Shown: positions 7,602 to 46,382, counted from the stretch's first letter. The stretch: DNA of 46,382 bases from Methanobacteriota archaeon (GCA_002719615.1 PBHZ01000010.1:1-46382); one strand, 5' to 3'. Translations and numbers: made by a program. The notes: generated by a model not told the origin, from the sequence alone.

Positions 7602-8074
7602 TCGAACCTGTCTCCATCAGTAATTCTACTCATCGCGGAAAGTATTTTCGCCACATGAGTCCTAGGCCTAAATAACCAATCATACACATGATGAATGGTA
7701 TTGTCGGGGCCTAATAAAAAAGATGATTTTGCTGGAAATAATCCCAAATGATTAGCTACACCATATTCTACCGCAACTTTTCTATCAGGATCGGATAGTA
7801 ATGTGAATGGTAATTGTAATTCTTCCTTGAATTCTTTATGTTGTTCTATTGTATCTTGGCTTATGCCGATGACTTCCACAGGAGGAGTTAAAGAGCGGAA
7901 TAAATCATATTGGTCTTTAAAAGATAGGCATCCCCTTTTACAGGTAGGTGATCCGTCTTTAGCATAGAAAAATAGTACTTTCCATTGACCATTATAATCA
8001 GATAACGAAAACAATTCACCATCACTGGTGTTCAAAGTAAATTCTGGTGCAGTAGAACCAATTAATGACGACAT
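7598..8074 (-). CDS. bcp: Peroxiredoxin, Bcp (AhpC/TSA) type
   Basis: WKVLFFYAKDGSPTCKRGC carries the peroxidatic Cys in the PxxxTxxC-like context. 158 aa. Confidence 0.85.
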   Translation of the reverse strand: MSSLIGSTAPEFTLNTSDGELFSLSDYNGQWKVLFFYAKDGSPTCKRGCLSFKDQYDLFRSLTPPVEVIGISQDTIEQHKEFKEELQLPFTLLSDPDRKVAVEYGVANHLGLFPAKSSFLLGPDNTIHHVYDWLFRPRTHVAKILSAMSRITDGDRFE

Positions 8075-8841: not shown

Positions 8842-10389
8842 GTGATGAATATTTTTAGACCAGAATCGCCTCGAATTCGTAGCTTAAATAATGAGTCTAT
8901 TGATCCATCAGGGGATTATATTCTATATTGGATGACCTCTGCAAGAAGATTTCACTATAATGCTGCTATGGATAGAGCAGTAGAATTAGCATTAGAATTG
9001 AATAAACCAGTACTAGTTGTTGAATGTATGTCAATCAGACATGATTGGGCAAATGAAAGAATACTAGCATTTTCTGTTCAAGGTATGCTAGACAACATCA
9101 AAATTTTCGAAGATAATAATATCACATATCTTCCATGGGTTGAGACTCACAAAGATTCAGGAAATAAGCTTCTTGCTAAATTATCAACTCACGCATGTTC
9201 TGTAATAGTTGATGATTATCCGACATATTTACCAAGAACCATTATGGAAAAAGCAGCTAGAATATGCAAAGTTAACACAGAGGCTGCGGATTCAAATGGG
9301 ATATTACCCATGGCATGGGCTGGCAAAGAACATTTGACGGCATACTCATTTAGAAAACATGTACAAAGAAGTATGGCAGAAGCATTACTAAATCTACCAT
9401 TAGAGAATTCAATGGAATCAGTATCAACTAACCTTAGGTTTAACCAGAAAGAAATGGCATCTCTGTTTGCAGCAGTTGAAGTAGAATTTACACCATTGGA
9501 ATGGTTGTGGAGAATTGGGGAAGCAGGAAAAATTTCAGAAGTTGCAATGGCTCCATTGAACATAGACCATGAGGTTAAACCTGTTGAAAAAATGAGAGGC
9601 GGTAGATTTGAAGCATTAAAAAGAATGGAAGTTTTCCTAGAAATTAATCTCAAAAGATATGCTACCGACAGAAATAGTACTGAAAATCCAGCTGTAAGTA
9701 CGCTTTCACCTTGGTTTCATTTTGGTCACATATCAACAATAGAAGTTGTTGTTGAGCTCTTCAAAAGAAGCAATTGGAGTTATGATATGACTTGTTTTGA
9801 GGATATGGGCAAAGGAACACGATCTGGATGGTGGGGATTGTCAGAAAGTGAGGAGTCATTCCTAGACCAAATAATTACATGGAGAGAATTAGGATTTAAT
9901 TTTGCCCATTACAGGAGAGATCATAAATCAATCGACTCAATACCAAATTGGGCAAAAAAATCCTTAGAAGACCACGCAGGAGATGAACGTAAACCATATA
10001 CATTCGATGATATTGAAAATGCAAAAACTGATGATGATGTTTGGAATGCTGCTCAAAGAGAGTTGCTAAGAACAGGTTTGATTCATAATTACATGAGGAT
10101 GGTTTGGGGAAAGAAAATCCTAGAGTGGGCGCCAGATCCTAATACTGCTGCCGATTGGATGATAAAAATTAATGATAGATGGGCATTAGATGGTAGAGAT
10201 CCAAACTCTTACACAGGAATATTTTGGGTCTTGGGACGTCATGACAGAGCATGGGGGCCAGAAAGACCAGTATTTGGGAAAGTACGTTACATGACTACTG
10301 AGAGTGCTAGGAGGAAGTTAAAATTGAATAATTACATCAACAGATGGTCAGAAGATGCTCCAATTCCTAGAGAGATACAGAGGTTGTGA
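8842..10389 (+). CDS. phr: Deoxyribodipyrimidine (CPD) photolyase, class II-like
   Basis: The C-terminal FAD-binding region HNYMRMVWGKKILEW...DGRDPNSYTGIFWVLGRHDRAW matches the class II photolyase signature. 515 aa. Confidence 0.88.
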   Translation: MMNIFRPESPRIRSLNNESIDPSGDYILYWMTSARRFHYNAAMDRAVELALELNKPVLVVECMSIRHDWANERILAFSVQGMLDNIKIFEDNNITYLPWVETHKDSGNKLLAKLSTHACSVIVDDYPTYLPRTIMEKAARICKVNTEAADSNGILPMAWAGKEHLTAYSFRKHVQRSMAEALLNLPLENSMESVSTNLRFNQKEMASLFAAVEVEFTPLEWLWRIGEAGKISEVAMAPLNIDHEVKPVEKMRGGRFEALKRMEVFLEINLKRYATDRNSTENPAVSTLSPWFHFGHISTIEVVVELFKRSNWSYDMTCFEDMGKGTRSGWWGLSESEESFLDQIITWRELGFNFAHYRRDHKSIDSIPNWAKKSLEDHAGDERKPYTFDDIENAKTDDDVWNAAQRELLRTGLIHNYMRMVWGKKILEWAPDPNTAADWMIKINDRWALDGRDPNSYTGIFWVLGRHDRAWGPERPVFGKVRYMTTESARRKLKLNNYINRWSEDAPIPREIQRL

Positions 10390-11810: not shown

Positions 11811-12284
11811 TTGGTAGATTCTCATGAATATTTAGTAGGAACTATTTTGCCTAATTTTAATTGCTTAAATGATGAAGGGGACTTAGTAACAAGTCAAGAT
11901 GTTTATGGTAAGTGGACTGTGATGTTCTTTTATCCTAAAGATGAATCACCAGGATGTACGCTCCAGTCTTGCTCATTCAGAGACAGATATGAACAATTTA
12001 CAGAACAAGGAATTTCACTCTATGGAGTATCATCTGATTCTGTTGAATCTCATAGAAAATTCAAGCAGAGATATAAACTACAATATTCTCTATTAAGTGA
12101 TGAAGGTGGATTACTTGCAAAAGCGTTGAAATTGAAGAAAGACTTTGGTTTTCTTCGCGCAAGAGTTACATTCGTAATTGATCCCGAAGGCACTATTGCC
12201 TTTGCACATACCAGTCAATTAGGAGTAACTGGACATGTGAAAAAGGCATTAAAAGTAATTAAATCTCAAGGAGCAATAGCATGA
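11811..12284 (+). CDS. bcp: Peroxiredoxin, Bcp type (second paralog)
   Basis: WTVMFFYPKDESPGCTLQSC motif. 157 aa. The stop overlaps the start of the downstream transporter. Confidence 0.85.
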   Translation: MVDSHEYLVGTILPNFNCLNDEGDLVTSQDVYGKWTVMFFYPKDESPGCTLQSCSFRDRYEQFTEQGISLYGVSSDSVESHRKFKQRYKLQYSLLSDEGGLLAKALKLKKDFGFLRARVTFVIDPEGTIAFAHTSQLGVTGHVKKALKVIKSQGAIA

Positions 12285-23971: not shown

Positions 23972-24838
23972 ATGTCTGAGTCATTTACAGTTTATCTAAG
24001 AAATGAAGAAAAGGTACTCTTGATGCAAAGAGCCGATGGAATTTCTGATTTCCCTGGTGCATGGGATGGGATTTATGGACTAGGAAATCCCGACGATCTT
24101 GACGTTGTAGCAAAGAGAGTTGAGGAGTGTACTGGTATTTCACAAGAAAATTTTGAATTTGTACGTACTGGTGAAGCACGTGGATTAGAATATGGAAATA
24201 GACTAGTTGATGTTACCCCAATACTTTGTGTTTGTAAAATCAAAGATGTTGTGCCAAATACATTATACAAAAATAGTGAATGGGTAGATCCCGGAAGAAT
24301 TAAAGAAAAGGAATATTCAACTCCCAAATTAACTGAAATGTATGGAGATGTTGCATCATATCTTTACATCTTAAAAACTTCAATAGGTCAAGAACAAAAT
24401 GTTGCTAAAGAAATCAGAGCAAGACTTTCAGGAACTGGATCTCTGCAAGATATTCAAGATGAAATATTTGGTGTACTAAATCCACATTTCATGAGAGGTT
24501 ATATTTTCGTTGAAGCATCTGCTCTGCATCATGTTGAAAAATTAATTGGCAGAGTAGGGATAGGAGTTACACCTCTAAAGAACTGTAGAAAGGTTTTGCC
24601 AGGAGAATCGCCACTTGAAGATGTATTACCTTATTTAGAGCCTAAGGCTGCTACATCTGGAATAGAAGAAGGTAGTCTTTGTGAAATTGTTGGAGGGGCA
24701 TTTAGAGGCCAAAATGCACGTGTAATTCGTGTTACTGAATCAAAAGAAGAAGTTACAGTTGAGTTATTCGAAGCTGCTGTACCTGTTGCACTAACAGTAC
24801 GAGCAGATCAAGTTAGAGTAACACAAAGGGTTGAATAA
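23972..24838 (+). CDS. spt5: Transcription elongation factor Spt5 (NusG: NGN plus KOW) with an N-terminal roughly 120-aa Nudix-like extension
   Basis: NGN region YLYILKTSIGQEQNVAKEIRARL. KOW region GSLCEIVGGAFRGQNARVIRV. N-terminal VYLRNEEKVLLMQRADGISDFPGAWDGIYGLGNPDDLDVVAKRVEECTGI looks Nudix-like. GAGGTG RBS before ATG 23972. Confidence 0.85.
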   Translation: MSESFTVYLRNEEKVLLMQRADGISDFPGAWDGIYGLGNPDDLDVVAKRVEECTGISQENFEFVRTGEARGLEYGNRLVDVTPILCVCKIKDVVPNTLYKNSEWVDPGRIKEKEYSTPKLTEMYGDVASYLYILKTSIGQEQNVAKEIRARLSGTGSLQDIQDEIFGVLNPHFMRGYIFVEASALHHVEKLIGRVGIGVTPLKNCRKVLPGESPLEDVLPYLEPKAATSGIEEGSLCEIVGGAFRGQNARVIRVTESKEEVTVELFEAAVPVALTVRADQVRVTQRVE

Positions 24839-31063: not shown

Positions 31064-32746
31064 TCATTCTTCTTCAGTATGAAGTGGAGTGGGTTTTCCA
31101 GATTCATTACTTTCGAATGTGGGTACTACTTCAGTATCCAATACTGCTCCACTCGCTAAAATCTTACGAATAGAGGTAGATGAAGTCAACGGATATGAAG
31201 TAGGAGCAAATGTTGTCTCAGATATACTCACTTGAGAATTTACCTTATCTCCTCTATATAATCCACTTACAATATTGGTAGCGTGGAATATTGCTCCCAA
31301 AACAGTACCATAGAAAATTACTGAACCAGATTTCCTCATAGTTTGAGAAAGTGTACTAGGATCTTCGACAAGGGCTTCCGCCAATGCAAGATCAGTGATG
31401 TCTGATATTAGTGTAAGAACTAATCCTAATATGGCCCCTCCAGACAACATCCAAAATGCCATTCTAGCTCTATTTTGTGAAAGCGGATATCTTCCACTAG
31501 CTGCAGGTAATACTTGTAATGCTGCACCCAAAGTTAGTGGGATAAAAACAGTCCAGATAGTCATTAATTGAATTATATTAGAAATCCCAGTAAGTTCATT
31601 TACTCCGCTCAGATAATCGGTTTGTATAAATAAAGACCCAATACCTAACGGAAGTAGCATCCAAGCTCCAAAATTTATTTCTGGAATACCTGCTGAATCT
31701 GGGTTTTCTACGAAGGTATCAGTACCACGAAGTGTGATTAATATGTTTGATGATAGCGCTATTATTGGAATTATGGCTAATGCCATCAAAAAAGATCCAA
31801 TTACATTGTCTTGATTTGTAATAACTAATTCCGCTGTTGATAATCCAAGCATATCTACAGCCATTATTGGGTGAACATCCCCGAGTGGGTTAATTGTAAA
31901 TAATGTTCCAAATATAACTACACCTGCAACGGTTCTTGACCATAATGCATTTCCAGATCCATAACTAGCTGAATAAAGTGCTATTCCAGCTATTGATGAA
32001 AACCAGAATGTAGCACCAAATAGATGGTATGCCAACCATTGACCAATTCCTTCATCATATGCACCACTAACAAGTATAGATATGATAGCAATCGGTGAAC
32101 CAATTAATCCAAAGATAATCAACCAACCTGGTGTTGCCAGCGAGACATCTGAATTTGCTTTAGTGAGTAATTGATTAGCTGTAATAGCGGTGGCGACAAG
32201 CAAATTTACTGCTGTTCCAATCAAAATAATATCTAAACCCAAAATTTCGCTACTTTGAGAGCCAATGATGAGAATTATTACTGATATTGTCCATAAAAAA
32301 GAAGTTAAGACAGCGTTCTTCTCACTTGCTAAATCGACTTCCAATAATGAAGGGAGTATATGTAATCCTGAGCCAATAATGAACATTCCGACTGCACCAA
32401 ATAATGCAGCAAATTTACCTGCATAGAAAAGTTCTGATGAAAGAGCATTGTATCCCCAAGCTTCCAAACTATGCAGAGCAATTGGATCATGTCCGAGCCA
32501 AAGACCTATGAAAGTAAGAGTTGCAGAAACGAATAACCAAATTGTTCCTTGAATAATCCAGATCTTTGACCCAGAACCTTTTCTTCCTTCTACAAGATCT
32601 GAACCTGGCCCTAACGCCTTCTCGAGCATAAACATAGTCAAGCCACGCACAACTTCTCCTAATACGCCAAGACCTCTTTGAATTAGGATATAAGAAATAA
32701 TAATGAGTGCCCAAAAAATCAATAATGTTGATAATATTGTATCCAT
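31064..32746 (-). CDS. Polytopic integral membrane protein (about 14 TM), family unknown
   Basis: 560 aa, almost entirely hydrophobic helices with a hydrophilic C-terminal tail. No motif I can assign confidently. Confidence 0.6.
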   Translation of the reverse strand: MDTILSTLLIFWALIIISYILIQRGLGVLGEVVRGLTMFMLEKALGPGSDLVEGRKGSGSKIWIIQGTIWLFVSATLTFIGLWLGHDPIALHSLEAWGYNALSSELFYAGKFAALFGAVGMFIIGSGLHILPSLLEVDLASEKNAVLTSFLWTISVIILIIGSQSSEILGLDIILIGTAVNLLVATAITANQLLTKANSDVSLATPGWLIIFGLIGSPIAIISILVSGAYDEGIGQWLAYHLFGATFWFSSIAGIALYSASYGSGNALWSRTVAGVVIFGTLFTINPLGDVHPIMAVDMLGLSTAELVITNQDNVIGSFLMALAIIPIIALSSNILITLRGTDTFVENPDSAGIPEINFGAWMLLPLGIGSLFIQTDYLSGVNELTGISNIIQLMTIWTVFIPLTLGAALQVLPAASGRYPLSQNRARMAFWMLSGGAILGLVLTLISDITDLALAEALVEDPSTLSQTMRKSGSVIFYGTVLGAIFHATNIVSGLYRGDKVNSQVSISETTFAPTSYPLTSSTSIRKILASGAVLDTEVVPTFESNESGKPTPLHTEEE

Positions 32747-35128: not shown

Positions 35129-35785
35129 TTATTCTGTTTCGTCGGAATCTTCTGATTTTTCTTGCGAAGCTTGTTCTTTAACAGCATCAAGAGCTTCATT
35201 CATACGGTCTTTGAATGTATCTTGCTTTTGCCGGAACTCAGCCATAGCTTGTACTGCACTGTCTATCATCTCATATCTAGTTTGAATAGCTTCATTGAGG
35301 TTTTCAAATAATTGCATATGTTGAACATACCAGTCATCCCTTGCAGACATTTCAGTAGTTGCTGTTTGTAAAGCTTCATCTAATTCTTCGGCTACTTCGA
35401 AAACACGCCCTAACCTTGCCTTTTCTCTGGAATACATTTCTTCTGTTTTCTCTAGTTTTGGTTCAAGATGTTCTATAGTTTTATTTGCCTTGGCACGCTC
35501 TAATTCCATTGCTCTCAAACGCTCATCTTTCTCATCCAGAAGTGCTTGAATTCCTTCTTTCTCAATTTCACTATTTACAGCCTCTTTTTCTAAAACTTCA
35601 ATAATGGCTTGTAATTCTTCATTTAGCTTTGATGATTCATTATATGCAATATATAATTTTTCTAATCTATCATTTGCTATTCTCAAATCCTCTTCTAAAT
35701 TTACTGAAGATGGAGCGTTTGGTTCAGGAAAACCGATTCCATTTTCGCCTTCGTTCATGTCTGCCTCGATATGTTCCACAACCAC
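35129..35785 (-). CDS. Acidic coiled-coil protein, function unknown
   Basis: 218 aa, heptad-rich, Glu/Lys/Leu-dominated (LEKLYIAYNESSKLNEELQAIIEVLEKE...). GTG start. Confidence 0.55.
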   Translation of the reverse strand: MVVEHIEADMNEGENGIGFPEPNAPSSVNLEEDLRIANDRLEKLYIAYNESSKLNEELQAIIEVLEKEAVNSEIEKEGIQALLDEKDERLRAMELERAKANKTIEHLEPKLEKTEEMYSREKARLGRVFEVAEELDEALQTATTEMSARDDWYVQHMQLFENLNEAIQTRYEMIDSAVQAMAEFRQKQDTFKDRMNEALDAVKEQASQEKSEDSDETE

Positions 35786-35839: not shown

Positions 35840-37276
35840 TTAACTTGATATTGCAGCGATTGTTGCAGAAAGAACAGCAGTTAGTCTTTTTGAGGATGGA
35901 ATGTGAAGTTTTTCATCTGGCCCATGAGCATTGTTACCTGGTCCGCCGGTACCAGTACAAAGGAATTTAGTATCTGGATATTTTTCTTGTATCATAGCCA
36001 TAAAAGGAATCGTTCCTCCAACCCATGTGGCCAATGGAGGTAATCCAGTTATATACATAGAAGCATCATGTAATGATTGAAGTAGTGCTCCTTCCAAAGG
36101 AGGTGCATGAAAACCATCTGCCGAAGAGTCTAGGGAGAAGTTGACTTGTGAGCCAAATGGAGGATTGTCTTCTAATTTTTCTTTGATTATTTTCTCAACA
36201 GAATTTGCCTTTATACCAGGAGGGATTCTAAAACTTAATTTAAAGTCAGTATTAGTACGTAGTACATTACCTGCATTTTGTACCGAGGGTATGCCATCTG
36301 CACCTATTACAGTCAATGCTGGTCTCCAATTAACATCGAGTAAGCTTTCTTCAACAGATTCTGATTGTGAAATCAGTGTATCTATTACAGGTAAAGTCTC
36401 CCATATCGAATTTCCAATTATTTCTGCAAGAGTTTTTGCTTGCTCTCGAATTGTTTCAGTTATTGTAGTATGCATTTCAGGAATTATGATTTCACCGGTA
36501 AGAGAATCTTCGACTCTATCTAAAAGAATTCTTTGAATTCTAAATGAAGATGGTATAGTTCCACCAGACATTCCTGAATGTACTCCTTCATGAGATACTT
36601 TTACAGAAAGCGTCCCTGATACTAATCCTCTCAGAGCTTCAGTTGTCCAAATATGGTCATAATCAGGCCCACCACTATCTAATACCACAACTAAGTCAGG
36701 ATTTCCAAGTTGATCAGTTAATTTTTCAAGGTAAGGAGGTAAATCGAAAGAGCCAGATTCTTCACATGTTTCAATCAAGAATTTGCAGGTTGGATGAGGA
36801 ATTCCGAGTTCTTGTAGTATTCTCAATGCTGTAACACAAAGATAGCCGCCATAACCATCGTCTAATGCTCCCCGACCGAATAGCCATGGATCTCTTCTAA
36901 CTCCTTTCAAAGGATGTAACCCTTCAGACCACAGTTCTGGTTTAGAAGGTTGCTTGTCTAAATGAGAATAAAATATTACTTCACCTGGCCCTGTTCCTTC
37001 TACATTAACCAGAAGAACAGGAGTAGAATTTTCTATTTTATGTACTTCGTATGACATTCCAGAAAGTTTTTGTTTATCTAGCCAGGAACAAAATAAATTA
37101 ATTGTTGCGTCTAATTCTCCTTTATTTGCCCAATTGGGCTCAAATGCAGGAGAAAGTGCTTCAATTTCAATAAATTTTTTCAAACTGGGTAAGATTGATT
37201 CTTCCCATAATTCATCACTACGTTTCATCAATGCATCGAGGTCAAGAGGCATGATGTCCTGTCTACCACCTTGCAA
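35840..37276 (-). CDS. M20-family metallopeptidase (dipeptidase, CNDP-like)
   Basis: VIFYSHLDKQP (HxD metal motif), GRGALDDGYG, and ETCEESGS (catalytic/metal Glu-Glu). 478 aa. Confidence 0.85.
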   Translation of the reverse strand: MQGGRQDIMPLDLDALMKRSDELWEESILPSLKKFIEIEALSPAFEPNWANKGELDATINLFCSWLDKQKLSGMSYEVHKIENSTPVLLVNVEGTGPGEVIFYSHLDKQPSKPELWSEGLHPLKGVRRDPWLFGRGALDDGYGGYLCVTALRILQELGIPHPTCKFLIETCEESGSFDLPPYLEKLTDQLGNPDLVVVLDSGGPDYDHIWTTEALRGLVSGTLSVKVSHEGVHSGMSGGTIPSSFRIQRILLDRVEDSLTGEIIIPEMHTTITETIREQAKTLAEIIGNSIWETLPVIDTLISQSESVEESLLDVNWRPALTVIGADGIPSVQNAGNVLRTNTDFKLSFRIPPGIKANSVEKIIKEKLEDNPPFGSQVNFSLDSSADGFHAPPLEGALLQSLHDASMYITGLPPLATWVGGTIPFMAMIQEKYPDTKFLCTGTGGPGNNAHGPDEKLHIPSSKRLTAVLSATIAAISS

Positions 37277-37297: not shown

Positions 37298-40200
37298 TTA
37301 ATTTAACGGGCCACAGATAGGTAATTCTCCTTGATTAAATGGACATTTATGACATATGTCAGATTTACTTGATTCTAAAGGAGGGAAATTAGAAAGTGAT
37401 ACATTAGAGCCTAGAGACATTCTAGCTGCTAATGATAAATTTTCTTCTAAATCATCTAATGCATTTTGTAACATATCATCTGGATAGACTACTAATCTTC
37501 CTGTGACTCCAATCAAAATTGCTGGAGAAAGGACTTTTCTTGAAGGAAAACCATATTTTGACCTTTCATTTTCAATATTTTGTAGTGCTATATAGTAAAG
37601 AGCTTGTTGCATTCTATGTTCCAATAAAATTTCTATTTCTGCTTGGCATTTTGGTTCAGTTGAAGTCTCTCCTAATGCTTCAATCAATCCATCTGTATTT
37701 TGATCTATCAATTTACTTGCTTCTTCTGTTTTGAGATCTATGGGGCGAATTGTGGATTTTCCATTAATAACAGTACAAAGTACGAGATCAATAAGACCAC
37801 TCATTTCAATATTAGCAAATTCAATTTTAGATAATGACTCATAGCCTTCAGGAGTCCACCGACTACGAATTAAGCCATTTAAATCTATTTTTTTAGTAAT
37901 GTTAAATGGCATTTCAGTTCTTAATCCCTCAACTCTATGTCCATCAAAAATTTCACCTCTAGATAGTCTACCAAGAGGTCCGGATTTTATCCTATTAATC
38001 ATTAAATTGACTAAATGAGTGGTGCTCTCTCGATCTGCTTCAAAAGGCAATAGCTCATCAAAAACTGTATTATGTATTTCAGGGCTATCAATTAAATCAA
38101 TTTCTCTCTTTATCCATGATTCAGGTAATGGAGTTGATGGATATTCTCCTTTTGGACCGGGATTACCTATACCTATCTCGATTATCCTATGAACTATTGT
38201 ACCAAAAAGAGCAGCGTCAATTCCCCTCGGTAGTCCATTTGTTGAATTTACATCTATTGATGAAATGATAGGTTTAGGAGATAGGCCACCGATTGTCTCA
38301 TACCAATGCCTTCTTGGGCATTTTTCTATGATTGAAATTCTACTTGGTACAATCTTCAATCTTGCAGAGAAATCTGTTCTTGGAGAAATAAGAGAGTTTT
38401 TTTGTCGAGATACAGAATTTCTGGCAAATGTATCTAAATTTTCTATTCTAGTCAAAGGAGTTGATACAGGAGAAGATTGATTTACAGAAATAAAACAATC
38501 AGGATGATGTAATACTGTTAATCCTTTTAATGACTTGGAATTGCCTAAAAATCCCTCAGAAAATAATGAAGATGGGTCAAATTCACGATATCCTCGATTT
38601 TTTATATCTATTTCAGCTGTCAAATCATCAGATTGATCAAGCCACGGTGAATCTTGTTCATTCCTATTGGCTGATCCTTGGCGTAATGATTCTATCCACA
38701 TTTCACCTAATTGAGGTAATGATTCTGAATATGTCCAAGGGAATTTTATTCCTTTTCCATCCACCCATCTAGTGCCTTTTGTTGACCCGACTATGATGAG
38801 TTTATTTTGTGCCCTAGTTGCTCCAACATAAAGAAGTCTACGTGATTCAGCACTTTTGCGTGCTTGGTAAATCTTTCTGACATGTTTCCATAAAGCGGAT
38901 AATGGAGATTTTTCATTAGACCAGGGCTTTGGATTACCGGCGAAAAGCTCCGGCGTTACAATCAGTCTGTTTCTATCATCTATCGTCATATTGGTTTGTC
39001 GACCAGAAAATAAATCTGCAAGAATAACTACTTTGGCTTGTAGTCCTTTTGACCCATGTATAGTCATTACTCTGACTGCATCGCTCGGAGGGATTGTCAC
39101 TGCTTCCAGAGAATTACCACCACTTTCTCTTAAATCGCGTATTTTATCTGCTAAAATAATTGAATCTCCACCAACTTCTCTAGATAAAATTCTTATAATA
39201 TCTATTATTTGTTCTAGGTCTTGTCGAGATACTATATCTGGAAACGCCATTAAAATATCTGACCTATCTACTGTTTCTTCTAAAAGATCGACTATACGTC
39301 CTTCTGAAGAGAGATCTATCCATCTTTGTACCAATTCTTTTTGTCTCTCGTTGATTGTAAAATCTCTTAATCTGATTAGTAAATTATCTTCTTTTTTAGA
39401 GTAAAAAAGATATTCTTGTAGTTTAGCATCATCAAATCCAATCAAAGAAGATCTTGCAACCCAAGAAGCGTGATGTCTGGAAAATGGTCGTGCAATGAAT
39501 TGCAGTAACCCTTCTATTGTATGAGCCGCTGGTCGATCAAGTAATCCTCCTTCACGATCGGCCTGTGCAGGAATTCCTAAGTTGTGCAAATGACGGATTA
39601 TAATATCTCTAATTTTACTCCTACTTGGCAGTAGTATCATTATTTCACTAGGTTCTACAGGATTTTCCGCCGGTAATTCTATCCAATTTCCTCCAGATGA
39701 AATAACTTTTATTGGTTTACCTTCGATTAAATTCTTTATTCTTAGGGCTATCATCAAACTTTGTCTTTCAATAGAATCCGATTTTCCAGGTCCAAATGGA
39801 TCAAGAGGTATTCGTAAATCAGTAGGTGGATTTTCGTCTCCCTCTATACCTAAAGGACAAATCCATTCTAATGACCCTTGAGCATCGATTTTATCCTTAC
39901 TTGGAAATAGACGCTGCGGGCTTGCGTAGAAATTACCGTTGGGAAAATGTCTGTGTTTATCATTAAAGATATCTTGCCACCACTCATTCATAACATTAAG
40001 TAAAGCACCATCAGTCCTGTAATTGATTTGTAAACTAATTAGCCCTTGTTTTCTACATTCTACCTCTTGCGAAGTTGGTATAGGAAGATGAGGGTCAGAT
40101 AAATCAAATGGTATCCATGGTATTAAATTTCGGCCGCCTTCTTCATTTACTTCAGCGCCCTTTATTATATTCAAATTATATGAGTTTCTTGGATCCCGAC

Positions 40201-42229
40201 TTGCGTCTGATTTACGTAAGGGTGGTTTACGAGTTAATTCCTTTATACTAGAAAATTCATGTTGATTAATATCTCTTAAGGTTCTCGAGTATTCTAGAAA
40301 TCCAGTAACTTCTGCTTGACGAAATGCGTAGATGCTTTGCTTTACATCCCCAACATAGCAAATAGTTGGTTGCCATGGTGTATTTGGTACATCAGGATCT
40401 TCATCTTGAATAGTTCTCTCGCCCCATAATCTGGAAAGTAGTCTCCATTGTAAAGGAGAGTTGTCTTGAGCTTCATCAATAATGAAAGCACGATAACGTC
40501 GTCTAATTTGTTTCAATAATTCATAACGTTGAGTTAAATCTAAACGAATTGTAGATAGTTTTTCTAGATAATTACCAGCTTTTTTTTGATTTTTTTCTAA
40601 TTTTTCTAATACAGAAAATGCTTCGGTTATATGATCATCGCGCCATGTTTCCGTATTTAATGAATTCAAAGCATCTTGTATTGATTGCGGATAAAATGTC
40701 CGACATATTTCAGGGCAATTGGCAAGTAGTAAATCTCCGGTCAATCTTTGAACATCGTCATAATCATGTGTTTCTTCATTTTTCTTTAAATTTTTCAAGA
40801 TTCCTAAAAAACCATCATGTACTAGTTTTAAATTTTCTAAATTATTCACTTCTGCCTCTAGTGTGAAATGAAATTTATCAATTTTTGAATCATTTGATAA
40901 TCTGCTAGGAAGAGGGAATGGAAGAGGTTGTAAAGGATGTTTCCAAACAGTAGAAGTCAGTGGGGGATTGGAATTATCAAGCATAAGTGTAACTTGAGTA
41001 AAGTGTAGAATGAGTTTACCAATCTTTCCATACCATAGATTTTTAATCTGTGAAGAAATTTCTTTTAGACCGATTTTAACCATTTCTCTTGTTGTTTTGT
41101 TTTCAATTTCAGTATAATTTCTAATTCCACTTTCCCATGTATCTGAAGGTAACTTAGAATTTGGAAAAATAGATGGTTTATTATTCATTATTGATGCTTT
41201 AGAAGTAATACAAAGTAACAAATGGCCGAGTCGGATTAATTGTTTCCACTTATCAATAGGAGGTTGTGACTCGCAGAGAGAATCAAGACATGCTATTCTT
41301 GTATCAGAAAATACTCCTTCTGGTGCTAGAACAGTAATGTTTTCTTTAACAAAATTACAATATTTTGTTACTAAGGTAAATAGTTCTCTTGAGAAATTTG
41401 TTAGTTCTTCTTGATCTATAGACAGAATAATTCTTTCCTTAAGTGATTCTGGATTGATTTTTCCATCTTTATTAGTCATAAGTCTCGTACTTTCCTCGAT
41501 AAATATCGATTTGTAGACTAAATTTCTCAGGACGTTTGTTGCACTTTTTCTACTTGAATAATGCTTAGAAATATTATCTCTGGCATCTAGGACTTGTGAA
41601 GCTATCTCTGAAGGTATTCCTGCATCGACTGCATCTCCGATTAAGTTGATTGAGTTTGGAAGTCTCCAAAGAATATTGATTGCAGATTCTACCAAAAGTA
41701 TCCGGCTAGTGTCAGAAATTACATCTTTACTATTAAAATCTCCTAAATACCCTCTATAGGGAGATATTAATTGATTAAAAAATGAGTCTATAGTTCCAAT
41801 CGGAGCATCTTCCAAGAGTGTTAGAAGTTGTTCATTGAATCCTTGATGGCGGATTCTTGGATCTGTTCTACTTATTCCGTCATCACTTATTGGCCCTGGT
41901 TTTAATTTTGAAATACGCTTCCTTAATCTATCACGCATTTCATCTGATGCTCTATTGGTAAATGTAAGTAAAACAACCTCACTAGGAAGAAGGCCTCGCC
42001 ATTTGCGAAGATCAATCGTTTCTGATGCAGGAGACATCAATAAACCACCTTCTAATTTTGATGGTCTTTCCGGCATGGGTAAAATTCTAGTCGCACGCTG
42101 ATCTTCTGTGAGATAATGTTCTATTACTCTATCAACAATTGTACTTGTTTTACCAGTTCCTGCTCCAGCATCAACCACAATATGGGAATCAAGGTTTAAC
42201 GCTAAACGCTGGGCTGTATTTAGGCGCAT
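37298..42229 (-). CDS. AddA-like SF1 (UvrD/Rep-type) helicase fused to a C-terminal Cys4-stapled PD-(D/E)XK (Cas4/AddB-type) nuclease, 1643 aa
   Basis: Helicase motifs: I DAGAGTGKTS (res 20-29); Ia LLTFTNRASDEMRDRL; II FIIDEAQDNSP (res 582-592); III YVGDVKQSIYAFRQAE; IV LQINYRT; V VMTIHGSKGLQAKVVILAD; VI RRLLYVGATRAQNKLIIVG. Nuclease motifs: GTIVHRIIE, GLIDLV, IDLKT, QQALYY. Cysteines at residues 1304, 1626, 1629 and 1639. Confidence 0.85.
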   Translation of the reverse strand: MRLNTAQRLALNLDSHIVVDAGAGTGKTSTIVDRVIEHYLTEDQRATRILPMPERPSKLEGGLLMSPASETIDLRKWRGLLPSEVVLLTFTNRASDEMRDRLRKRISKLKPGPISDDGISRTDPRIRHQGFNEQLLTLLEDAPIGTIDSFFNQLISPYRGYLGDFNSKDVISDTSRILLVESAINILWRLPNSINLIGDAVDAGIPSEIASQVLDARDNISKHYSSRKSATNVLRNLVYKSIFIEESTRLMTNKDGKINPESLKERIILSIDQEELTNFSRELFTLVTKYCNFVKENITVLAPEGVFSDTRIACLDSLCESQPPIDKWKQLIRLGHLLLCITSKASIMNNKPSIFPNSKLPSDTWESGIRNYTEIENKTTREMVKIGLKEISSQIKNLWYGKIGKLILHFTQVTLMLDNSNPPLTSTVWKHPLQPLPFPLPSRLSNDSKIDKFHFTLEAEVNNLENLKLVHDGFLGILKNLKKNEETHDYDDVQRLTGDLLLANCPEICRTFYPQSIQDALNSLNTETWRDDHITEAFSVLEKLEKNQKKAGNYLEKLSTIRLDLTQRYELLKQIRRRYRAFIIDEAQDNSPLQWRLLSRLWGERTIQDEDPDVPNTPWQPTICYVGDVKQSIYAFRQAEVTGFLEYSRTLRDINQHEFSSIKELTRKPPLRKSDASRDPRNSYNLNIIKGAEVNEEGGRNLIPWIPFDLSDPHLPIPTSQEVECRKQGLISLQINYRTDGALLNVMNEWWQDIFNDKHRHFPNGNFYASPQRLFPSKDKIDAQGSLEWICPLGIEGDENPPTDLRIPLDPFGPGKSDSIERQSLMIALRIKNLIEGKPIKVISSGGNWIELPAENPVEPSEIMILLPSRSKIRDIIIRHLHNLGIPAQADREGGLLDRPAAHTIEGLLQFIARPFSRHHASWVARSSLIGFDDAKLQEYLFYSKKEDNLLIRLRDFTINERQKELVQRWIDLSSEGRIVDLLEETVDRSDILMAFPDIVSRQDLEQIIDIIRILSREVGGDSIILADKIRDLRESGGNSLEAVTIPPSDAVRVMTIHGSKGLQAKVVILADLFSGRQTNMTIDDRNRLIVTPELFAGNPKPWSNEKSPLSALWKHVRKIYQARKSAESRRLLYVGATRAQNKLIIVGSTKGTRWVDGKGIKFPWTYSESLPQLGEMWIESLRQGSANRNEQDSPWLDQSDDLTAEIDIKNRGYREFDPSSLFSEGFLGNSKSLKGLTVLHHPDCFISVNQSSPVSTPLTRIENLDTFARNSVSRQKNSLISPRTDFSARLKIVPSRISIIEKCPRRHWYETIGGLSPKPIISSIDVNSTNGLPRGIDAALFGTIVHRIIEIGIGNPGPKGEYPSTPLPESWIKREIDLIDSPEIHNTVFDELLPFEADRESTTHLVNLMINRIKSGPLGRLSRGEIFDGHRVEGLRTEMPFNITKKIDLNGLIRSRWTPEGYESLSKIEFANIEMSGLIDLVLCTVINGKSTIRPIDLKTEEASKLIDQNTDGLIEALGETSTEPKCQAEIEILLEHRMQQALYYIALQNIENERSKYGFPSRKVLSPAILIGVTGRLVVYPDDMLQNALDDLEENLSLAARMSLGSNVSLSNFPPLESSKSDICHKCPFNQGELPICGPLN

Positions 42230-45200
42230 TAAAAATCATCCTCCATCTTAACATCACATATTTGTTTCACTGAACAGTAACTACAAACTTTTTTTGAAGG
42301 AGTTGGATGTACTTTTCCTAATTTAGCATTATTAGCAACTCCCAAAGAGACCGACAATCGGTGAGTAAGCCAAGCTCTGAATTGATCACTACTAGGATTA
42401 TTATTTTCATTTGGAAATCTGTATAAATCTTCTGTTGTTCTTGAAATGATACCAATGTCTAATTTATTGATATGAGGAAAAAAATTAGATGTTTCTAGAT
42501 TATGTGATGTATTATGACTAAACAGAGATATCCCAACACCTACTACAAGATCTCCGGGATGTGCAATTTCCCATGCTCTAGCATAAATGGCTAATTGTAA
42601 TTCCTCTAAAAGACCAATATTATGTCTCTCTTTAGAAGACTTGGATTCAGAGGTTTTCAAATCTCTTATAATTATCAATCTTTTTGGTTTCCAATCACTA
42701 TCAGTTAATTTTAGAGGAGCTATACTATTATCTCCATCTTTATTATACCATATTTTTCTATCTTTATCAAGGGGCACTTGGTCAACTCTATCTATCTTGC
42801 CCTTTACTTTTATTGGTGGTAGTTTTTGCATATTAGGGCTAGTAATCTCTGATGGAATGTCTATCTCTATTCCATTATCATCATAATTATCAGTATCCCA
42901 TTCAATGCTTATTGGCATACCATCTGATATACTAAATTCAGCCTCTATTATTGTTCCAATTCTTCCTTTGGGTTCTACTGGAGTAGGATTTGCAAGCCAA
43001 TCATTATACTGTTCTCTGTTCATTCCGGTAAGGACCTGAAGTCTATGGATAGAAACTGCATCTGTACGATCTAACCAAGGTGCTCTCGAATCTAATGATT
43101 CTAATGCTACTTTCATGACTTCATTTTTTGACAAATATGAGTTTCCGATATTGATATTTTCTCTTTTTCCATTAATACTATCAAACTCTTCACCTATTTT
43201 CATATTCAATATACGACATAAAATGTCATGATGTATGAAATGAAGAAGGTTACCATGGGTTCTTGAGTCTAGATCTTCAGATTGAAGTTCTTCTTGATTG
43301 GCCTTGAGGATCCTATTTAACCATCCACTTCTTGGGCATTTTAGCCAATCATGTAATTTACTGGCTGACCAAATTGTTACATTTTGTCCTAATCCAGTTC
43401 CATGTCCGTGCCGCGAATCGCTGACATTAATTCCTGTAGATATTGGAGTGAAGGGCCTAGGATCTATAGTAGGAGTTCTTTTTCCATCTTTAGTGATACC
43501 TCCTATCACTGGCCATGAAAAAAATTCTCTAGGTATTATTTCTCCAGGAGGGGTTTTCCTGGATAAATCAGAATAATTGAAATAAAAAATATGATCTCGT
43601 GATTCAAAAGATAAGTATTGATTATCATCTACTATATCCGGTTGTCTTCTTTCTCGCTCACGTTGTAATTGGACATCGAGAGGGATGGATATCGAACTAG
43701 GATTGATTGGTGAGTATTGTGCCTTAATGCCTTTTATCAATTTATTACCATCTAACTGACGGTAATCTCTTGGACTAGTGGGACTAAATTCTAATGTTAA
43801 TTTTTCTATGTTTTCGTTTGATAAGATCCATTCCCTGATTGGTGCTGTGGGAGGGGCTGTGTCATCTAAACTTGGATCAAGAATTATAGTTTCTTTTGCG
43901 GAAAATAATAGGTGTTTTAGGAAATGTCTGGCTTTTCTGATTGGTCCGTCCGGCCTCAGCAAATTGAATTTATGTCGTTCTTCTTCTCCGATAAATGGTA
44001 ACTTAGGAACTCTCATATCCCATGATGAGCTGGATAAATTTGCCAAGATGATTAAATCTGCCGAACAACCAATTGCTTGATCAGGAGTAAGTATTCTTAA
44101 CCTTGAACTACTTTTTAATTGATTATCTGGTAGTAAGACAGAATTCATCAAAGTCAGATATTCTTCAACCCAATCTGTGCCCCTCTTTGGATAATTGTGC
44201 TTCAAGTTTGATTGCATATTTCTTAATTCTTGATGAGATGTTAGAAGTGTTTGAATTACAAGAAATTTACCTGTATAATCATCCATAAAATCAGAATTTA
44301 TCAGATTATTGGATGATTTAAATTGATTTAATATCCACTTATCACCATCAATATTTGATTCATCCAATGGTAAAATAATCTCTGAATGACATCCTGTAAG
44401 TAGTTTTCTTTCTTTTAAGACAGAAATATCTTCTTCTCTGAGTAACGGTTGAAGGGATTTAGCAAGACTCAATAGCCACCACTGTGTTGATTCTTTCTTA
44501 ATCTCATCAATTTCAGAATTTGGAGGTCTAGCAAGAGATTCTAGCCATCTTCTAAGAGCCCCTGGGCCACCTAAAATATGATCATTCCTGGCTAAATTAG
44601 TCAATAATTGAAAATCTGGCATTGGTATAATTTCAGAATTAGTAGGGTGGATTAAATTTGATTCAAAAGGAGATATTGTTTCTTGTTGAGCAATAGTCCT
44701 CAAGGATTCTAAAGAAAAGCTATTTGCACTATGACCTAATGTAATTAACTGTTTGAGCCAATGACCATAGGAATCGCTGATTATTGATTTATTATTTTCC
44801 TTCATCGATAAACCAATATTTTCAATCAATCTTTTCCATCTAAAAATATTTGAATCTAGAGAGGGATCGATAATTATTACTGTTGACGTGGAATCTTTTT
44901 CAAGGAATTGTTGTGCAAGAGAAATAGCAGAATTAAAAGAATGATCCTCCCTTTGAAGAAGGTATCTTGTAACATTAGGCTGTTGTTTTATCAACTCAAT
45001 TTCATGCAAGGGAATCCATTGTGGTAACTCATTTTTAGAATTAATTGGATATTTGTCAATTAATAAAAAACCATGATGGCCAAGCCTGAAATTACCAGGA
45101 TATACCAATTGATGAATAGGACAATGATTAGATATGGACAATAATAATTCTTGATGAGATTTAAGCATCCCCGGAGGATGGTTCAGCATTATTATTCCTT

Positions 45201-45819
45201 CAACATCAATTAAAGAAAATGGTTTATCTGAATTCGATAGTCTATCAATGATTTTTTTTGTTGCCATATCCGGATGTGTTCTTCCTGTTTTTTGCTCAAG
45301 ATTTTTCAATATTTTCCTGAAAGAATTCAGACCTGGTCCATCCCATGACTCAGCAATATTTTCATTAGAAAGATATTCATGTAATGTAGATAATGCAGAT
45401 GTTTTTCCTCTACTCCATTCCATTTCTGGAATAGGATTCATTATAGGAAATGTTAGTTTTTTAGCTTCTTTCCTACATTCTTCATGTAAAATAATGTTAA
45501 ACTCTTCTTTTACAGATAATAATCTTGGAAACCTGAAATCTGCTAATAATGAAATTAATAATGAATTTATGGTATGATGAAGTTTCCTATCGAATACAAA
45601 ACCTTCGAGGCTTAATTCAGATAAAGACTGCATTCGTGATTCTTCGGAAGGATATATTATCATTATCTTATTTTTCCTTTTTTCAGGTATAGAATTTGGA
45701 CTAATTGCTTGCCATCTGATGTGCTCTTTTAACCACACAGGAAGGTGTCCCTCAGAGACTAGTTCATTGGTAATAAAACAATCCTCCCTAAACGACATCA
45801 CATCACCGAGCACACTCAA
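42229..45819 (-). CDS. AddB/RexB-like subunit: helicase-like scaffold without a P-loop plus a C-terminal Cys4-stapled PD-(D/E)XK nuclease, 1196 aa
   Basis: AddB-like VRILTPDQAIGCSADLIILANL segment. Nuclease motifs HGNLLHFIHHD, GKIDRVD, IIIRDLKT, QLAIYARAW. Cysteines at 828, 1179, 1182 and 1188 (C-x350-CxxC-x5-C, the AddB spacing). The stop overlaps the AddA-like ATG (TAATG at 42227-42231). The start is TTG 45819 or ATG 45798. Confidence 0.75.
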   Translation of the reverse strand: MSVLGDVMSFREDCFITNELVSEGHLPVWLKEHIRWQAISPNSIPEKRKNKIMIIYPSEESRMQSLSELSLEGFVFDRKLHHTINSLLISLLADFRFPRLLSVKEEFNIILHEECRKEAKKLTFPIMNPIPEMEWSRGKTSALSTLHEYLSNENIAESWDGPGLNSFRKILKNLEQKTGRTHPDMATKKIIDRLSNSDKPFSLIDVEGIIMLNHPPGMLKSHQELLLSISNHCPIHQLVYPGNFRLGHHGFLLIDKYPINSKNELPQWIPLHEIELIKQQPNVTRYLLQREDHSFNSAISLAQQFLEKDSTSTVIIIDPSLDSNIFRWKRLIENIGLSMKENNKSIISDSYGHWLKQLITLGHSANSFSLESLRTIAQQETISPFESNLIHPTNSEIIPMPDFQLLTNLARNDHILGGPGALRRWLESLARPPNSEIDEIKKESTQWWLLSLAKSLQPLLREEDISVLKERKLLTGCHSEIILPLDESNIDGDKWILNQFKSSNNLINSDFMDDYTGKFLVIQTLLTSHQELRNMQSNLKHNYPKRGTDWVEEYLTLMNSVLLPDNQLKSSSRLRILTPDQAIGCSADLIILANLSSSSWDMRVPKLPFIGEEERHKFNLLRPDGPIRKARHFLKHLLFSAKETIILDPSLDDTAPPTAPIREWILSNENIEKLTLEFSPTSPRDYRQLDGNKLIKGIKAQYSPINPSSISIPLDVQLQRERERRQPDIVDDNQYLSFESRDHIFYFNYSDLSRKTPPGEIIPREFFSWPVIGGITKDGKRTPTIDPRPFTPISTGINVSDSRHGHGTGLGQNVTIWSASKLHDWLKCPRSGWLNRILKANQEELQSEDLDSRTHGNLLHFIHHDILCRILNMKIGEEFDSINGKRENINIGNSYLSKNEVMKVALESLDSRAPWLDRTDAVSIHRLQVLTGMNREQYNDWLANPTPVEPKGRIGTIIEAEFSISDGMPISIEWDTDNYDDNGIEIDIPSEITSPNMQKLPPIKVKGKIDRVDQVPLDKDRKIWYNKDGDNSIAPLKLTDSDWKPKRLIIIRDLKTSESKSSKERHNIGLLEELQLAIYARAWEIAHPGDLVVGVGISLFSHNTSHNLETSNFFPHINKLDIGIISRTTEDLYRFPNENNNPSSDQFRAWLTHRLSVSLGVANNAKLGKVHPTPSKKVCSYCSVKQICDVKMEDDF

Positions 45820-45872
45820 TAAAGCAGGGGGTTATTGAACCCAACTAATGTTTTCTATTATAAGTGGTGTAA

Positions 45873-46382
45873 TTAGTACTTTTTCGAGTAAATCAGTGAA
45901 GAAATCAAAAGACAGAGTATGGTTAAAATCATTGAAGGCCCCGGAAAGAAATTGTCATCATTATTTTCTTCAACCCAATCTACAATTAATATTACATTCA
46001 TATCATCATCATCCCATGCCGAGGGATAAGAGTAATTCATTGAACCATCTAATTCATCTAGTAAAATCACATGATGTAGGACATGGTGATAGTACTCTAA
46101 ATCATTAGATCCCTCTGGAAAATATGCTACATCTTCAACAAACAATAACCATGCTGATGTTGAAACAGATTTTCGACAATTATCAGAACAAATAGGCATC
46201 AAAGTAGATGTAGACCAAGTAAATGTAGAAGTTTCGATATCTTCAGTTAAGAAATCATTTTCAGTTACTGATAGGCTAATGTTACCATAAAGAGGCGCAG
46301 TAGAGCCTACAGAGATGGAGGTTATGAAATCATTCTCCAAAGTATCAGATTTTGGACGATGTCCGGGATGCATTCGTTCACC
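45873..46382 (-). CDS. Hypothetical surface protein with a C-terminal PGF-CTERM-like anchor; the reading frame is open to the right window edge
   Basis: Ser/Thr/Asp-rich body. The tail FFPGPSMILTILCLLISSLIYSKKY is Pro-Gly, a hydrophobic helix, then a basic end. There is no stop between ATG 46373 and the window end, so the N-terminus may lie outside. Confidence 0.45.
   Translation of the reverse strand, partial: GERMHPGHRPKSDTLENDFITSISVGSTAPLYGNISLSVTENDFLTEDIETSTFTWSTSTLMPICSDNCRKSVSTSAWLLFVEDVAYFPEGSNDLEYYHHVLHHVILLDELDGSMNYSYPSAWDDDDMNVILIVDWVEENNDDNFFPGPSMILTILCLLISSLIYSKKY

Follow-up and report, generated by a model that had tools for sequence, protein, structure and literature searches.

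A conserved gene pair of Marine Group II archaea that probably encodes an AddAB-type helicase-nuclease

Does an archaeon process DNA ends with an enzyme of the bacterial AddAB class? Break resection in archaea is usually ascribed to Mre11-Rad50 and HerA-NurA. The question is raised by two overlapping genes on the minus strand of a 46,382 nucleotide (nt) stretch of archaeal DNA, called here the window, in which the pair spans positions 37298-45819. A preliminary description made from the sequence alone likened the two products to the AddAB family of helicase-nucleases, considered a horizontally acquired repair machine, a substitute for HerA-NurA or an anti-virus module, and implied that such a pair in an archaeon would be novel. 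A 2026 preprint (bioRxiv 10.64898/2026.05.08.723854) states that archaea lack both RecBCD and AddAB. Reuter et al. 2010 (PMC2887965), where they cite Cromie 2009, write of the transfer of addAB 'even into the archaea'. As cited there, archaeal addAB genes as such were already reported in 2009, and the novelty is reduced to that extent. We consider it likely that the two genes specify a helicase-nuclease of AddAB type, a heterodimer with a single motor and two nuclease domains, vertically inherited as a core enzyme of Marine Group II (MGII).

The gene pair and the domains of its products

The order of the genes is B then A. The upstream open reading frame (ORF; 42229-45819, minus strand, as are all features of the pair given below) encodes the AddB-like subunit, and has 1196 amino acids (aa) when read from a TTG at 45819. 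An in-frame ATG at 45798 (MSFRED...) gives 1189 aa, and is the probable start because close homologues have this length. The downstream gene (37298-42229) encodes the AddA-like motor-nuclease subunit of 1643 aa. The two meet in a TAATG stop/start overlap at 42227-42231, where the TAA at 42231-42229 shares one base (42229) with the ATG at 42229-42227; the junction reads TTTTTAATGCGC on the coding strand. Coordinates, protein lengths and junction all agree with those first described. The sequence of the overlap suggests translational coupling. A TATA-like element CTTATAATA (45855-45863) lies ~60 nt upstream of the ATG at 45798, within the 75 nt gap that follows the preceding gene, and is a possible archaeal promoter for the pair. 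The genome has a GC content of 36%. Since the ORFs are very long at this composition and have full-length homologues in hundreds of genomes, they do not arise by chance.

Residues 1-1152 of the motor subunit (38774-42229) correspond to a superfamily 1A (SF1A) UvrD-like motor in which motifs I, Ia and II-VI are intact. These are GAGTGKT (motif I, residues 22-28), TFTNRA (Ia, 89-94), DEAQD (II, 585-589), GDVKQSIYAFRQA (III, 627-639), NYRT (IV, 736-739), TIHGSKG (V, 1056-1062) and VGATRA (VI, 1135-1140). Pfam matches to the protein are UvrD-helicase (1.2e-34), UvrD_C (2e-14), UvrD_C_2, AAA_19 and PDDEXK_1 (1.7e-7). In NCBIfam the Gram-positive AddA model scores highest (143.5 bits), followed by alpha-type AddA (137.9) and RecB (126.3), with PcrA (77), UvrD (47) and Rep well below them. 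The complete UvrD/Rep motif set and C-terminal nuclease proposed for this protein are therefore borne out both by reading of the motifs and by the profile collections. Among solved structures the closest in sequence is Bacillus subtilis AddA (3u44_A), with an E-value of 5e-12 for the single sequence and 1.3e-21 with a profile.

The motor subunit had been called unusually long. It does exceed the 1232 aa AddA chain of 3u44 by ~410 aa, but not all of its spacing is peculiar. Motifs Ia and II are ~480-490 aa apart. AAA_19 matches up to residue 106 and UvrD-helicase again from residue 523 onwards, framing an enlarged region of residues ~107-522 (40664-41911) at the position of domain 1B, in which no known domain was detected. 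This region is ~200 aa longer than in Escherichia coli RecB, of which residues 324-432 align with residues 530-646 of the archaeal protein. Since RecB itself aligns with a ~200-residue offset at motif II, part of the spacing is normal for RecB and AddA. A second gain of ~70 aa occurs ahead of residue 822, where the alignment with AddA picks up again, and the C-terminal part past the motor is ~145 aa longer than that of AddA.

This C-terminal part includes a PD-(D/E)XK nuclease domain (37301-38362) containing the sequences GLIDLV (D1481), DLK (D1498 and K1500) and QQALYY (Q1541 and Y1545). These five residues are invariant across 41 sequences spanning the whole family. Cys1304 (KCPRRHW, 38318-38320), the first putative metal-cluster ligand, is likewise invariant in 41 sequences including distant lineages. 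A C-terminal triad C1626-x2-C1629-x9-C1639 (37313-37354) follows, the first two of its cysteines being invariant and the third conserved to at least 90%. The layout, with one cysteine before the core and CxxCx9C after it, mirrors the iron-sulphur (Fe-S) ligand pattern of AddB, Cas4 and Dna2, and on this basis the domain is putatively of the Fe-S class. Alignment of the two nuclease domains of the pair using hhalign gave a probability of 94.5% (E = 8e-8), beginning at the S..L....CPR..W motif. An AlphaFold2 (AF2) model of residues 1200-1643 has pLDDT 87 and pTM 0.79, and its best Foldseek matches in the PDB are the nuclease domains of AdnA and Dna2, followed by RecB and AddB. The profile-profile and fold matches tie the domain to the Fe-S nuclease class. 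The triad takes the form CxxCx9C in most members of the family and Cx6CxxC in some, the members examined for this including P0471, P0477, P0487, P0491 and P0495. The same model contains a long two-stranded β-ribbon (residues 1431-1488, window ~37766-37939) with strands of ~28 residues and pLDDT >95, which bears two conserved residues, E1439 and D1481. We would expect the hairpin of a PD-(D/E)XK core to be much shorter.

To our knowledge B. subtilis AddA has no four-cysteine set of its own, unlike the archaeal motor subunit. In the characterized systems the Fe-S cluster is carried by the non-motor subunit, AddB or AdnA (PMC3321194, PMC8789073), and having a cysteine set on the motor subunit therefore sets the archaeal pair apart from B. 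subtilis AddAB. Such a set is not unique, however, as several of the nearest bacterial AddA-like motor proteins end in CxxCx5C and cysteines are also present in UvrD-Cas4-type fusions (PMC5704561).

Most of the AddB-like subunit is taken up by a predicted scaffold with a helicase-like SF1 fold (43720-45798, the boundary being approximate). Foldseek analysis of the AF2 model of the subunit (pLDDT 75) placed five B. subtilis AddB chains at the top, 4ceh_B first, with E-values of 2.9e-22 to 4e-21 over ~1235 columns, then AdnA (3e-16), and then AddA, UvrD and RecC. In the window protein no Pfam or NCBIfam model matched the scaffold, and a PDB sequence search with the small subunit returned no AddB, whether a single sequence or a 32-sequence profile was used. 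A Walker A motif, G-x(1-4)-GK[ST], is found nowhere in the small subunit, nor were the other helicase motifs found; the sequence IIYPSEESR stands at the position of the AddB P-loop. By analogy, the scaffold is the presumed site of recognition of single-stranded DNA (ssDNA) or of a hotspot.

The scaffold is followed by a PD-(D/E)XK nuclease of RecB/Cas4 type (42232-43374) with the sequences GKIDRVD (D1010), RDLK (D1053 and K1055) and QLAIY (Q1075 and Y1079), all five residues being invariant in 32 homologues. This C-terminal domain gives the sole Pfam match of the 1196 aa protein (PDDEXK_1, 9.4e-14). The first of four putative Fe-S ligands, Cys828 (KCPRSGW, 43336-43338), and the C-terminal triad C1179-x2-C1182-x5-C1188 (42256-42285) are invariant in alignments, and the triad has the spacing of AddB, Cas4 and Dna2. 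When 22 diverse members of the family were scanned, addB_alphas matched the scaffold region in 10/22 (best E = 4.4e-9, under its cut-off of 486.5 bits), and the AddB-like model TIGR03623 and Cas4 each matched in 8/22; no other NCBIfam family was matched. Because the addB_alphas matches are sub-threshold, AddB homology is supported, but membership of the curated AddB family is not. The proposal of an AddB-like scaffold with a second nuclease is thus upheld by the fold match and the family scan, although the window sequence alone lacks an AddB match, and the Pfam and NCBIfam searches support the helicase and nuclease assignments generally. Sequence and predicted structure together point to an AddB homologue of a class that lacks Walker A and possesses the cysteines. 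Cromie is said to have reported in 2009 that the absence of Walker A and the four-cysteine set each occur in subsets of AddB proteins only.

Distribution of the pair and its relation to bacterial enzymes

The host is an MGII archaeon (Poseidoniales, Thalassarchaeaceae), assigned from the lineage labels carried by homologues of both proteins; the archaeal origin proposed earlier was correct. The named homologues come from Candidatus Thalassarchaeaceae, Poseidoniaceae, Poseidonia, Poseidoniales or 'Euryarchaeota archaeon' metagenome-assembled genomes (MAGs). The closest species genome in the collection is PATZ01000014.1 (L053), with protein identity of 93-94%.

We scanned one genome per GTDB species, and found relatives of the small subunit in 331 species genomes. 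Of the best 80 of the 331, 78 are titled Poseidoniales, Thalassarchaeaceae, Poseidonia or generic archaeal MAG. The remaining two are titled 'Flavobacteriales bacterium SP80' (L059, PAZG01000017.1) and 'Verrucomicrobiales bacterium ARS100' (L086, NZEQ01000040.1). L059 has the AddB-like gene, the helicase gene and a downstream coiled-coil gene in the full MGII order, while L086 ends just past the AddB-like gene. With an MGII AddB-like gene in both and the full gene order in one, they look like mis-binned archaeal contigs. Among 1.84 billion cluster representatives a profile of the small subunit found only 255 proteins at E ≤ 0.001, about 35 of them full length. Judged by this count for the AddB-like protein and by the drop in helicase scores given below, both protein families are closed. 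The fast-evolving MGIIb proteins P0519 and P0520 belong to an abundant group, with clusters of 417 and 191 members.

The helicase gene directly follows the AddB-like gene in every locus with enough flanking sequence. A stop/start overlap of 1, 4, 10 or 31 nt is present in 79/80 related loci, where the start is taken as the candidate nearest the upstream stop. The conserved neighbours are genes for an M20 peptidase, a coiled-coil protein, a hexapeptide transferase, a radical SAM enzyme, an Obg-like GTPase and ribosomal proteins L12, L10 and L1, and the neighbourhood is kept down to ~50% identity and beyond. Thus the pair is conserved in place among housekeeping genes rather than patchy, and is a core, not an accessory, feature of Poseidoniales. 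A deep archaeal lineage (L005; ENA ERZ26167216, 10001-18168) has the pair at 25-27% identity, followed by the M20 peptidase. L005 is on a 3.0 Mb contig of 71% GC with neighbours that include MCM, GatE and PTH2, and this contig is much larger and more GC-rich than typical MGII genomes.

The composition of the pair is native. Its GC content is 0.345 compared with 0.365 for the rest of the window, and GC at third codon positions (GC3) is 0.20-0.23, as in the neighbouring genes. Since both values are equal to those of the neighbours, a recent horizontal transfer of the pair was rejected. Scanning viral contigs with the small subunit found no relatives. Defence genes of the restriction-modification, Dcm/Vsr or GajA/OLD types were found near the locus neither in the window nor in relatives, and PADLOC returned only generic UvrD (GajB) matches to the helicase domain, from models of 500-700 aa proteins.

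The relationship to bacterial helicases was examined using the most divergent archaeal helicase as query. No member of the archaeal family scores below 345 bits or covers less than 82% of the query, and the next matches score no more than 104 bits over 18-35% of it. These nearest helicases outside the family (P0521-P0548) are bacterial and 1016-1324 aa in length, compared with ~1450-1820 aa for the archaeal proteins. They are called 'ATP-dependent helicase/nuclease subunit A' by JGI, and those named are from Pyrinomonadaceae (Acidobacteriota), Anaerolineae and Bacillota. They too fall under the AddA equivalog cut-offs (addA_Gpos 280-380 bits). The bacterial AddA-like and AddB-like genes have the same two-gene arrangement, and at least one AddA-like gene (locus L088) follows a recognizable addB (addB_Gpos 2e-34).

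A rough neighbour-joining (NJ) tree was calculated from 689 conserved columns. It took in 18 archaeal family members and 28 AddA-like proteins from bacteria, together with RecB and UvrD from E. coli, but no canonical Bacillus AddA or mycobacterial AdnB. In this tree the archaeal family is monophyletic in 100/100 bootstraps, on a long branch within the AddA/RecB radiation. Its sister is E. coli RecB in 63% of bootstraps, a position that probably reflects long-branch attraction. Being monophyletic with a drifting sister, the family does not nest cleanly in any bacterial clade sampled, as it might have done had this been an ordinary transfer of a known bacterial AddAB. The simplest reading of the sequences is an ancient transfer followed by vertical descent with strong divergence.

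Of the named systems the pair is closest to B. subtilis AddAB (3U44, 4CEH), which is the best fold match of the small subunit and the best sequence match of the large one. There too we find two adjacent, co-oriented genes in the order B then A, an SF1A UvrD-like motor with a C-terminal RecB-family nuclease on the A subunit, and a helicase-shaped B scaffold with a nuclease bearing C...CxxCx5C. The differences are substantial. AddB has ~10-11% identity with the archaeal B subunit, and the score of the archaeal AddA is one fifth of the cut-off. The structural work of Saikrishnan et al. 2012 (PMC3321194), which describes the AddB fold and its Fe-S cluster, finds a Walker A motif in B. subtilis AddB, whereas the archaeal B subunit has none.

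Mycobacterial AdnAB (6PPJ, 9NP6) is also a heterodimer of two subunits that each combine a helicase fold with a nuclease, and its Fe-S cluster is in AdnA, the non-tracking subunit (PMC8789073). AdnA is the second-best fold match for the archaeal small subunit and the best for the motor nuclease domain. In AdnA, however, the Walker A and B motifs are kept and nucleotide is bound (AMPPNP; PMC8789073, PMC3321194), whereas the small subunit has no such motifs. Assignment to the AdnAB class was rejected, given the absence of G-x(1-4)-GK[ST] from that subunit. In E. coli RecBCD, RecB is a UvrD-like motor with a C-terminal nuclease and a long 1B domain, and RecC is a dead-helicase scaffold. RecC has neither an active nuclease nor a cysteine cluster, whereas judging from its sequence the archaeal small subunit has both sets of residues intact. 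No gene for a RecD-like SF1B helicase or any further helicase was found at the locus, in the window or in relatives. The RecBCD class was rejected on both counts.

Proposed function and the alternatives

For an AddAB-type heterodimer of this kind the most likely role, by analogy, would be DNA-end processing for RadA-dependent recombinational repair. The complex would bind a double-stranded DNA (dsDNA) end, where the 1643 aa subunit would use its SF1A motor for ATP-driven 3'→5' tracking on one strand. The 1189 aa subunit, having lost its ATPase and helicase motifs, would supply a helicase-shaped ssDNA channel and the scaffold. The two unwound strands would each be led to one PD-(D/E)XK nuclease domain, leaving a 3' tail of ssDNA on which RadA, the recombinase of archaea, could act. 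Linear DNA that lacks protection, for instance that of viruses, would be broken down incidentally, as happens in bacteria. The analogy with B. subtilis AddAB and other characterized enzymes underlies all that is proposed here on assembly of the heterodimer, strand polarity, Fe-S ligation, possible control by a Chi-like sequence and transfer of the product to RadA. Mre11-Rad50 with HerA-NurA has the same presumed task of making 3' tails at DNA ends for RadA, but does so with unrelated proteins and mechanism, using a hexameric HerA translocase and the NurA nuclease.

Several observations weigh against this assignment. The host is uncultured, and the pair is known from sequence and predicted structures alone. 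AddAB ordinarily partners RecA, the recombinase of its own hosts, whereas the archaeal host has RadA, and interplay of the pair with RadA is suggested here by analogy. Mre11-Rad50 and HerA-NurA may also be present in these genomes, a point that would equally favour a role other than break resection. The motor subunit falls under the curated AddA cut-offs for TIGR02785 (143.5 versus 707.65 bits) and TIGR02784 (137.9 versus 860.75 bits) and also under that for RecB, and the small subunit of the window matches none of the AddB/RexB models of NCBIfam (TIGR02773, TIGR02786, TIGR02774). Foldseek TM-scores for the latter are 0.39-0.41 and the pTM of its model is 0.55, although modest TM-scores are expected for a multidomain chain at ~10% identity. 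A few sublineages lack the motor cysteine triad, such as the fast-evolving MGIIb P0519/P0520 (L087:10001-14758), which suggests that the putative second metal cluster may be dispensable in some lineages. Finally the pair evolves fast, with 28-31% identity between the MGIIb window and MGIIa compared with 45-72% for neighbouring genes.

This rapid divergence relative to the neighbouring genes might reflect a virus-driven arms race, and the pair could be mainly an antiviral defence module in which a UvrD-like helicase and PD-(D/E)XK nucleases destroy invading linear DNA. RecBCD and AddAB restrict phage in bacteria. The PADLOC GajB models match the helicase domain of the motor subunit, but these matches are generic and confined to that domain. 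Fusions of a UvrD-type SF1 helicase with a Cas4/pfam12705-type nuclease containing cysteines occur in defence contexts in bacteria and mesophilic archaea, where they were listed by Hudaiberdiev et al. 2017 (PMC5704561). Such genes are stand-alone or linked to type III restriction-modification or Dcm/Vsr loci (PMC5704561), whereas the archaeal gene is strictly paired in a housekeeping setting. The constant place of the locus among housekeeping genes throughout the order, with no defence genes nearby, its relatives in so many species, its native composition and the lack of relatives on the viral contigs scanned all argue against defence as its main task, which we consider quite unlikely. A defence-type UvrD-Cas4 or Gabija GajB class was rejected on the basis of the housekeeping neighbours and order-wide distribution. 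Of the functions raised at the outset, a repair enzyme, here core and vertically inherited, is thus favoured, and accessory defence is disfavoured by synteny, composition and the viral-contig scan.

A real complex might alternatively serve another DNA transaction, acting at stalled or reversed forks, in Dna2-like flap or Okazaki processing, or in the degradation of damaged chromosomes in a polyploid cell, with break resection left to Mre11-Rad50-HerA-NurA. The similarity of the motor nuclease domain to the Fe-S nucleases of Dna2 and AdnA is in keeping with this, and in bacteria reversed forks are among the substrates of AddAB and RecBCD. Yet Dna2 consists of one polypeptide whose SF1B motor has the opposite polarity, and the architecture and closest relatives of the archaeal pair are those of AddAB enzymes that depend on dsDNA ends. 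We think such a role unlikely. That each protein works on its own, one as a UvrD-like helicase-nuclease and the other as a nuclease like Cas4, with only an operon in common, is highly improbable. The physical complex is proposed by analogy, and uvrD-cas4 fusion genes are found stand-alone or in non-conserved contexts (PMC5704561). Against this stand the strict co-occurrence, the fixed order and the near-universal overlap of the genes. Moreover ~800 residues of the small subunit are predicted to fold as a dead helicase, with AddB and AdnA as the best matches, and in these two proteins such a fold acts only as a partner of the motor subunit (PMC3321194, PMC8789073).

Returning to an AddAB-type enzyme in end processing, a more far-reaching proposal is that Poseidoniales use it as their main resection enzyme to feed RadA, with HerA-NurA displaced or redundant, and that the dead-helicase subunit reads a lineage-specific Chi-like hotspot. 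We regard this extended form as doubtful. If true, it would mark the first case of Chi-regulated recombination among Archaea, and the nuclease pair would be unusual in having an Fe-S cluster on both subunits.

Neighbouring genes and significance

An M20-family peptidase gene (35840-37276, minus strand) begins ~21 nt past the helicase stop codon. The gene has this position in MGIIb and also L005, whereas MGIIa does not show it there, and it may be co-transcribed with the pair, though there is no obvious functional link. A coiled-coil protein of ~210-226 aa (35129-35785, minus strand, in the window) is encoded just downstream of the pair in nearly all Poseidoniales loci, with 44-65% identity, above that of the pair. 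Its orthologue at L087:16288-16968 ends in a SAP DNA-binding domain (1.4e-10), while the window copy has no SAP match; it could be a DNA-binding partner or merely syntenic. Just upstream of the pair is an ORF for a 166 aa protein (45873-46373, minus strand) with no Pfam family, as is also the case for ORFs of 560 aa (31064-32746, minus strand) and 515 aa (8842-10389, plus strand). The 166 and 560 aa proteins are kept in syntenic MGIIb loci with 33-48% identity.

Elsewhere in the window are genes for a family B DNA polymerase, FtsZ, Spt5/NusG and ribosomal protein L10, ORFs at the positions known for L1 and L12 from relatives, an Obg-like GTPase, two peroxiredoxins and assorted metabolic enzymes. 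The Spt5/NusG ORF (23972-24838, plus strand; 288 aa) has its NGN domain beginning at residue 131, and the N-terminal extension of ~130 aa without a Pfam match may come from a wrongly placed start codon or from fusion with a gene upstream. The two AhpC/TSA peroxiredoxin genes (7598-8074, minus strand, and 11811-12284, plus strand) are no more than 4 kb apart, and such a pairing fits heavy oxidative stress in surface-ocean archaea.

Database names for the orthologues of the pair are 'UvrD-helicase domain-containing protein', 'hypothetical' and 'PD-(D/E)XK nuclease family protein', with 'exonuclease V beta subunit' used by JGI for some; they are not annotated as AddAB. Our literature search found no report linking MGII or Poseidoniales with AddAB, and the MGII genome surveys that we checked for the pair do not mention these genes. 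What is new, and well supported, is an order-wide and highly diverged archaeal AddAB, with an enlarged motor, Fe-S-type nucleases on both subunits and a B subunit lacking Walker A.

Poseidoniales are the most abundant planktonic archaea of the surface ocean. An ecologically dominant archaeal order would thus carry an AddAB-type enzyme as a fixed core gene pair, so strongly diverged that it goes unnamed by curated models and annotation pipelines. This raises the question of how a bacterial-type resection machine might cooperate with RadA and the archaeal ssDNA-binding proteins SSB or RPA, whether archaeal genomes contain Chi-like sequences, and what the task of a second Fe-S-type nuclease on the motor subunit may be. 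A further question is whether the enzyme influences how viruses interact with their hosts, and how genes are exchanged, in the surface ocean. To studies of how AddAB, AdnAB and RecBCD evolved, the pair adds a distant outgroup.

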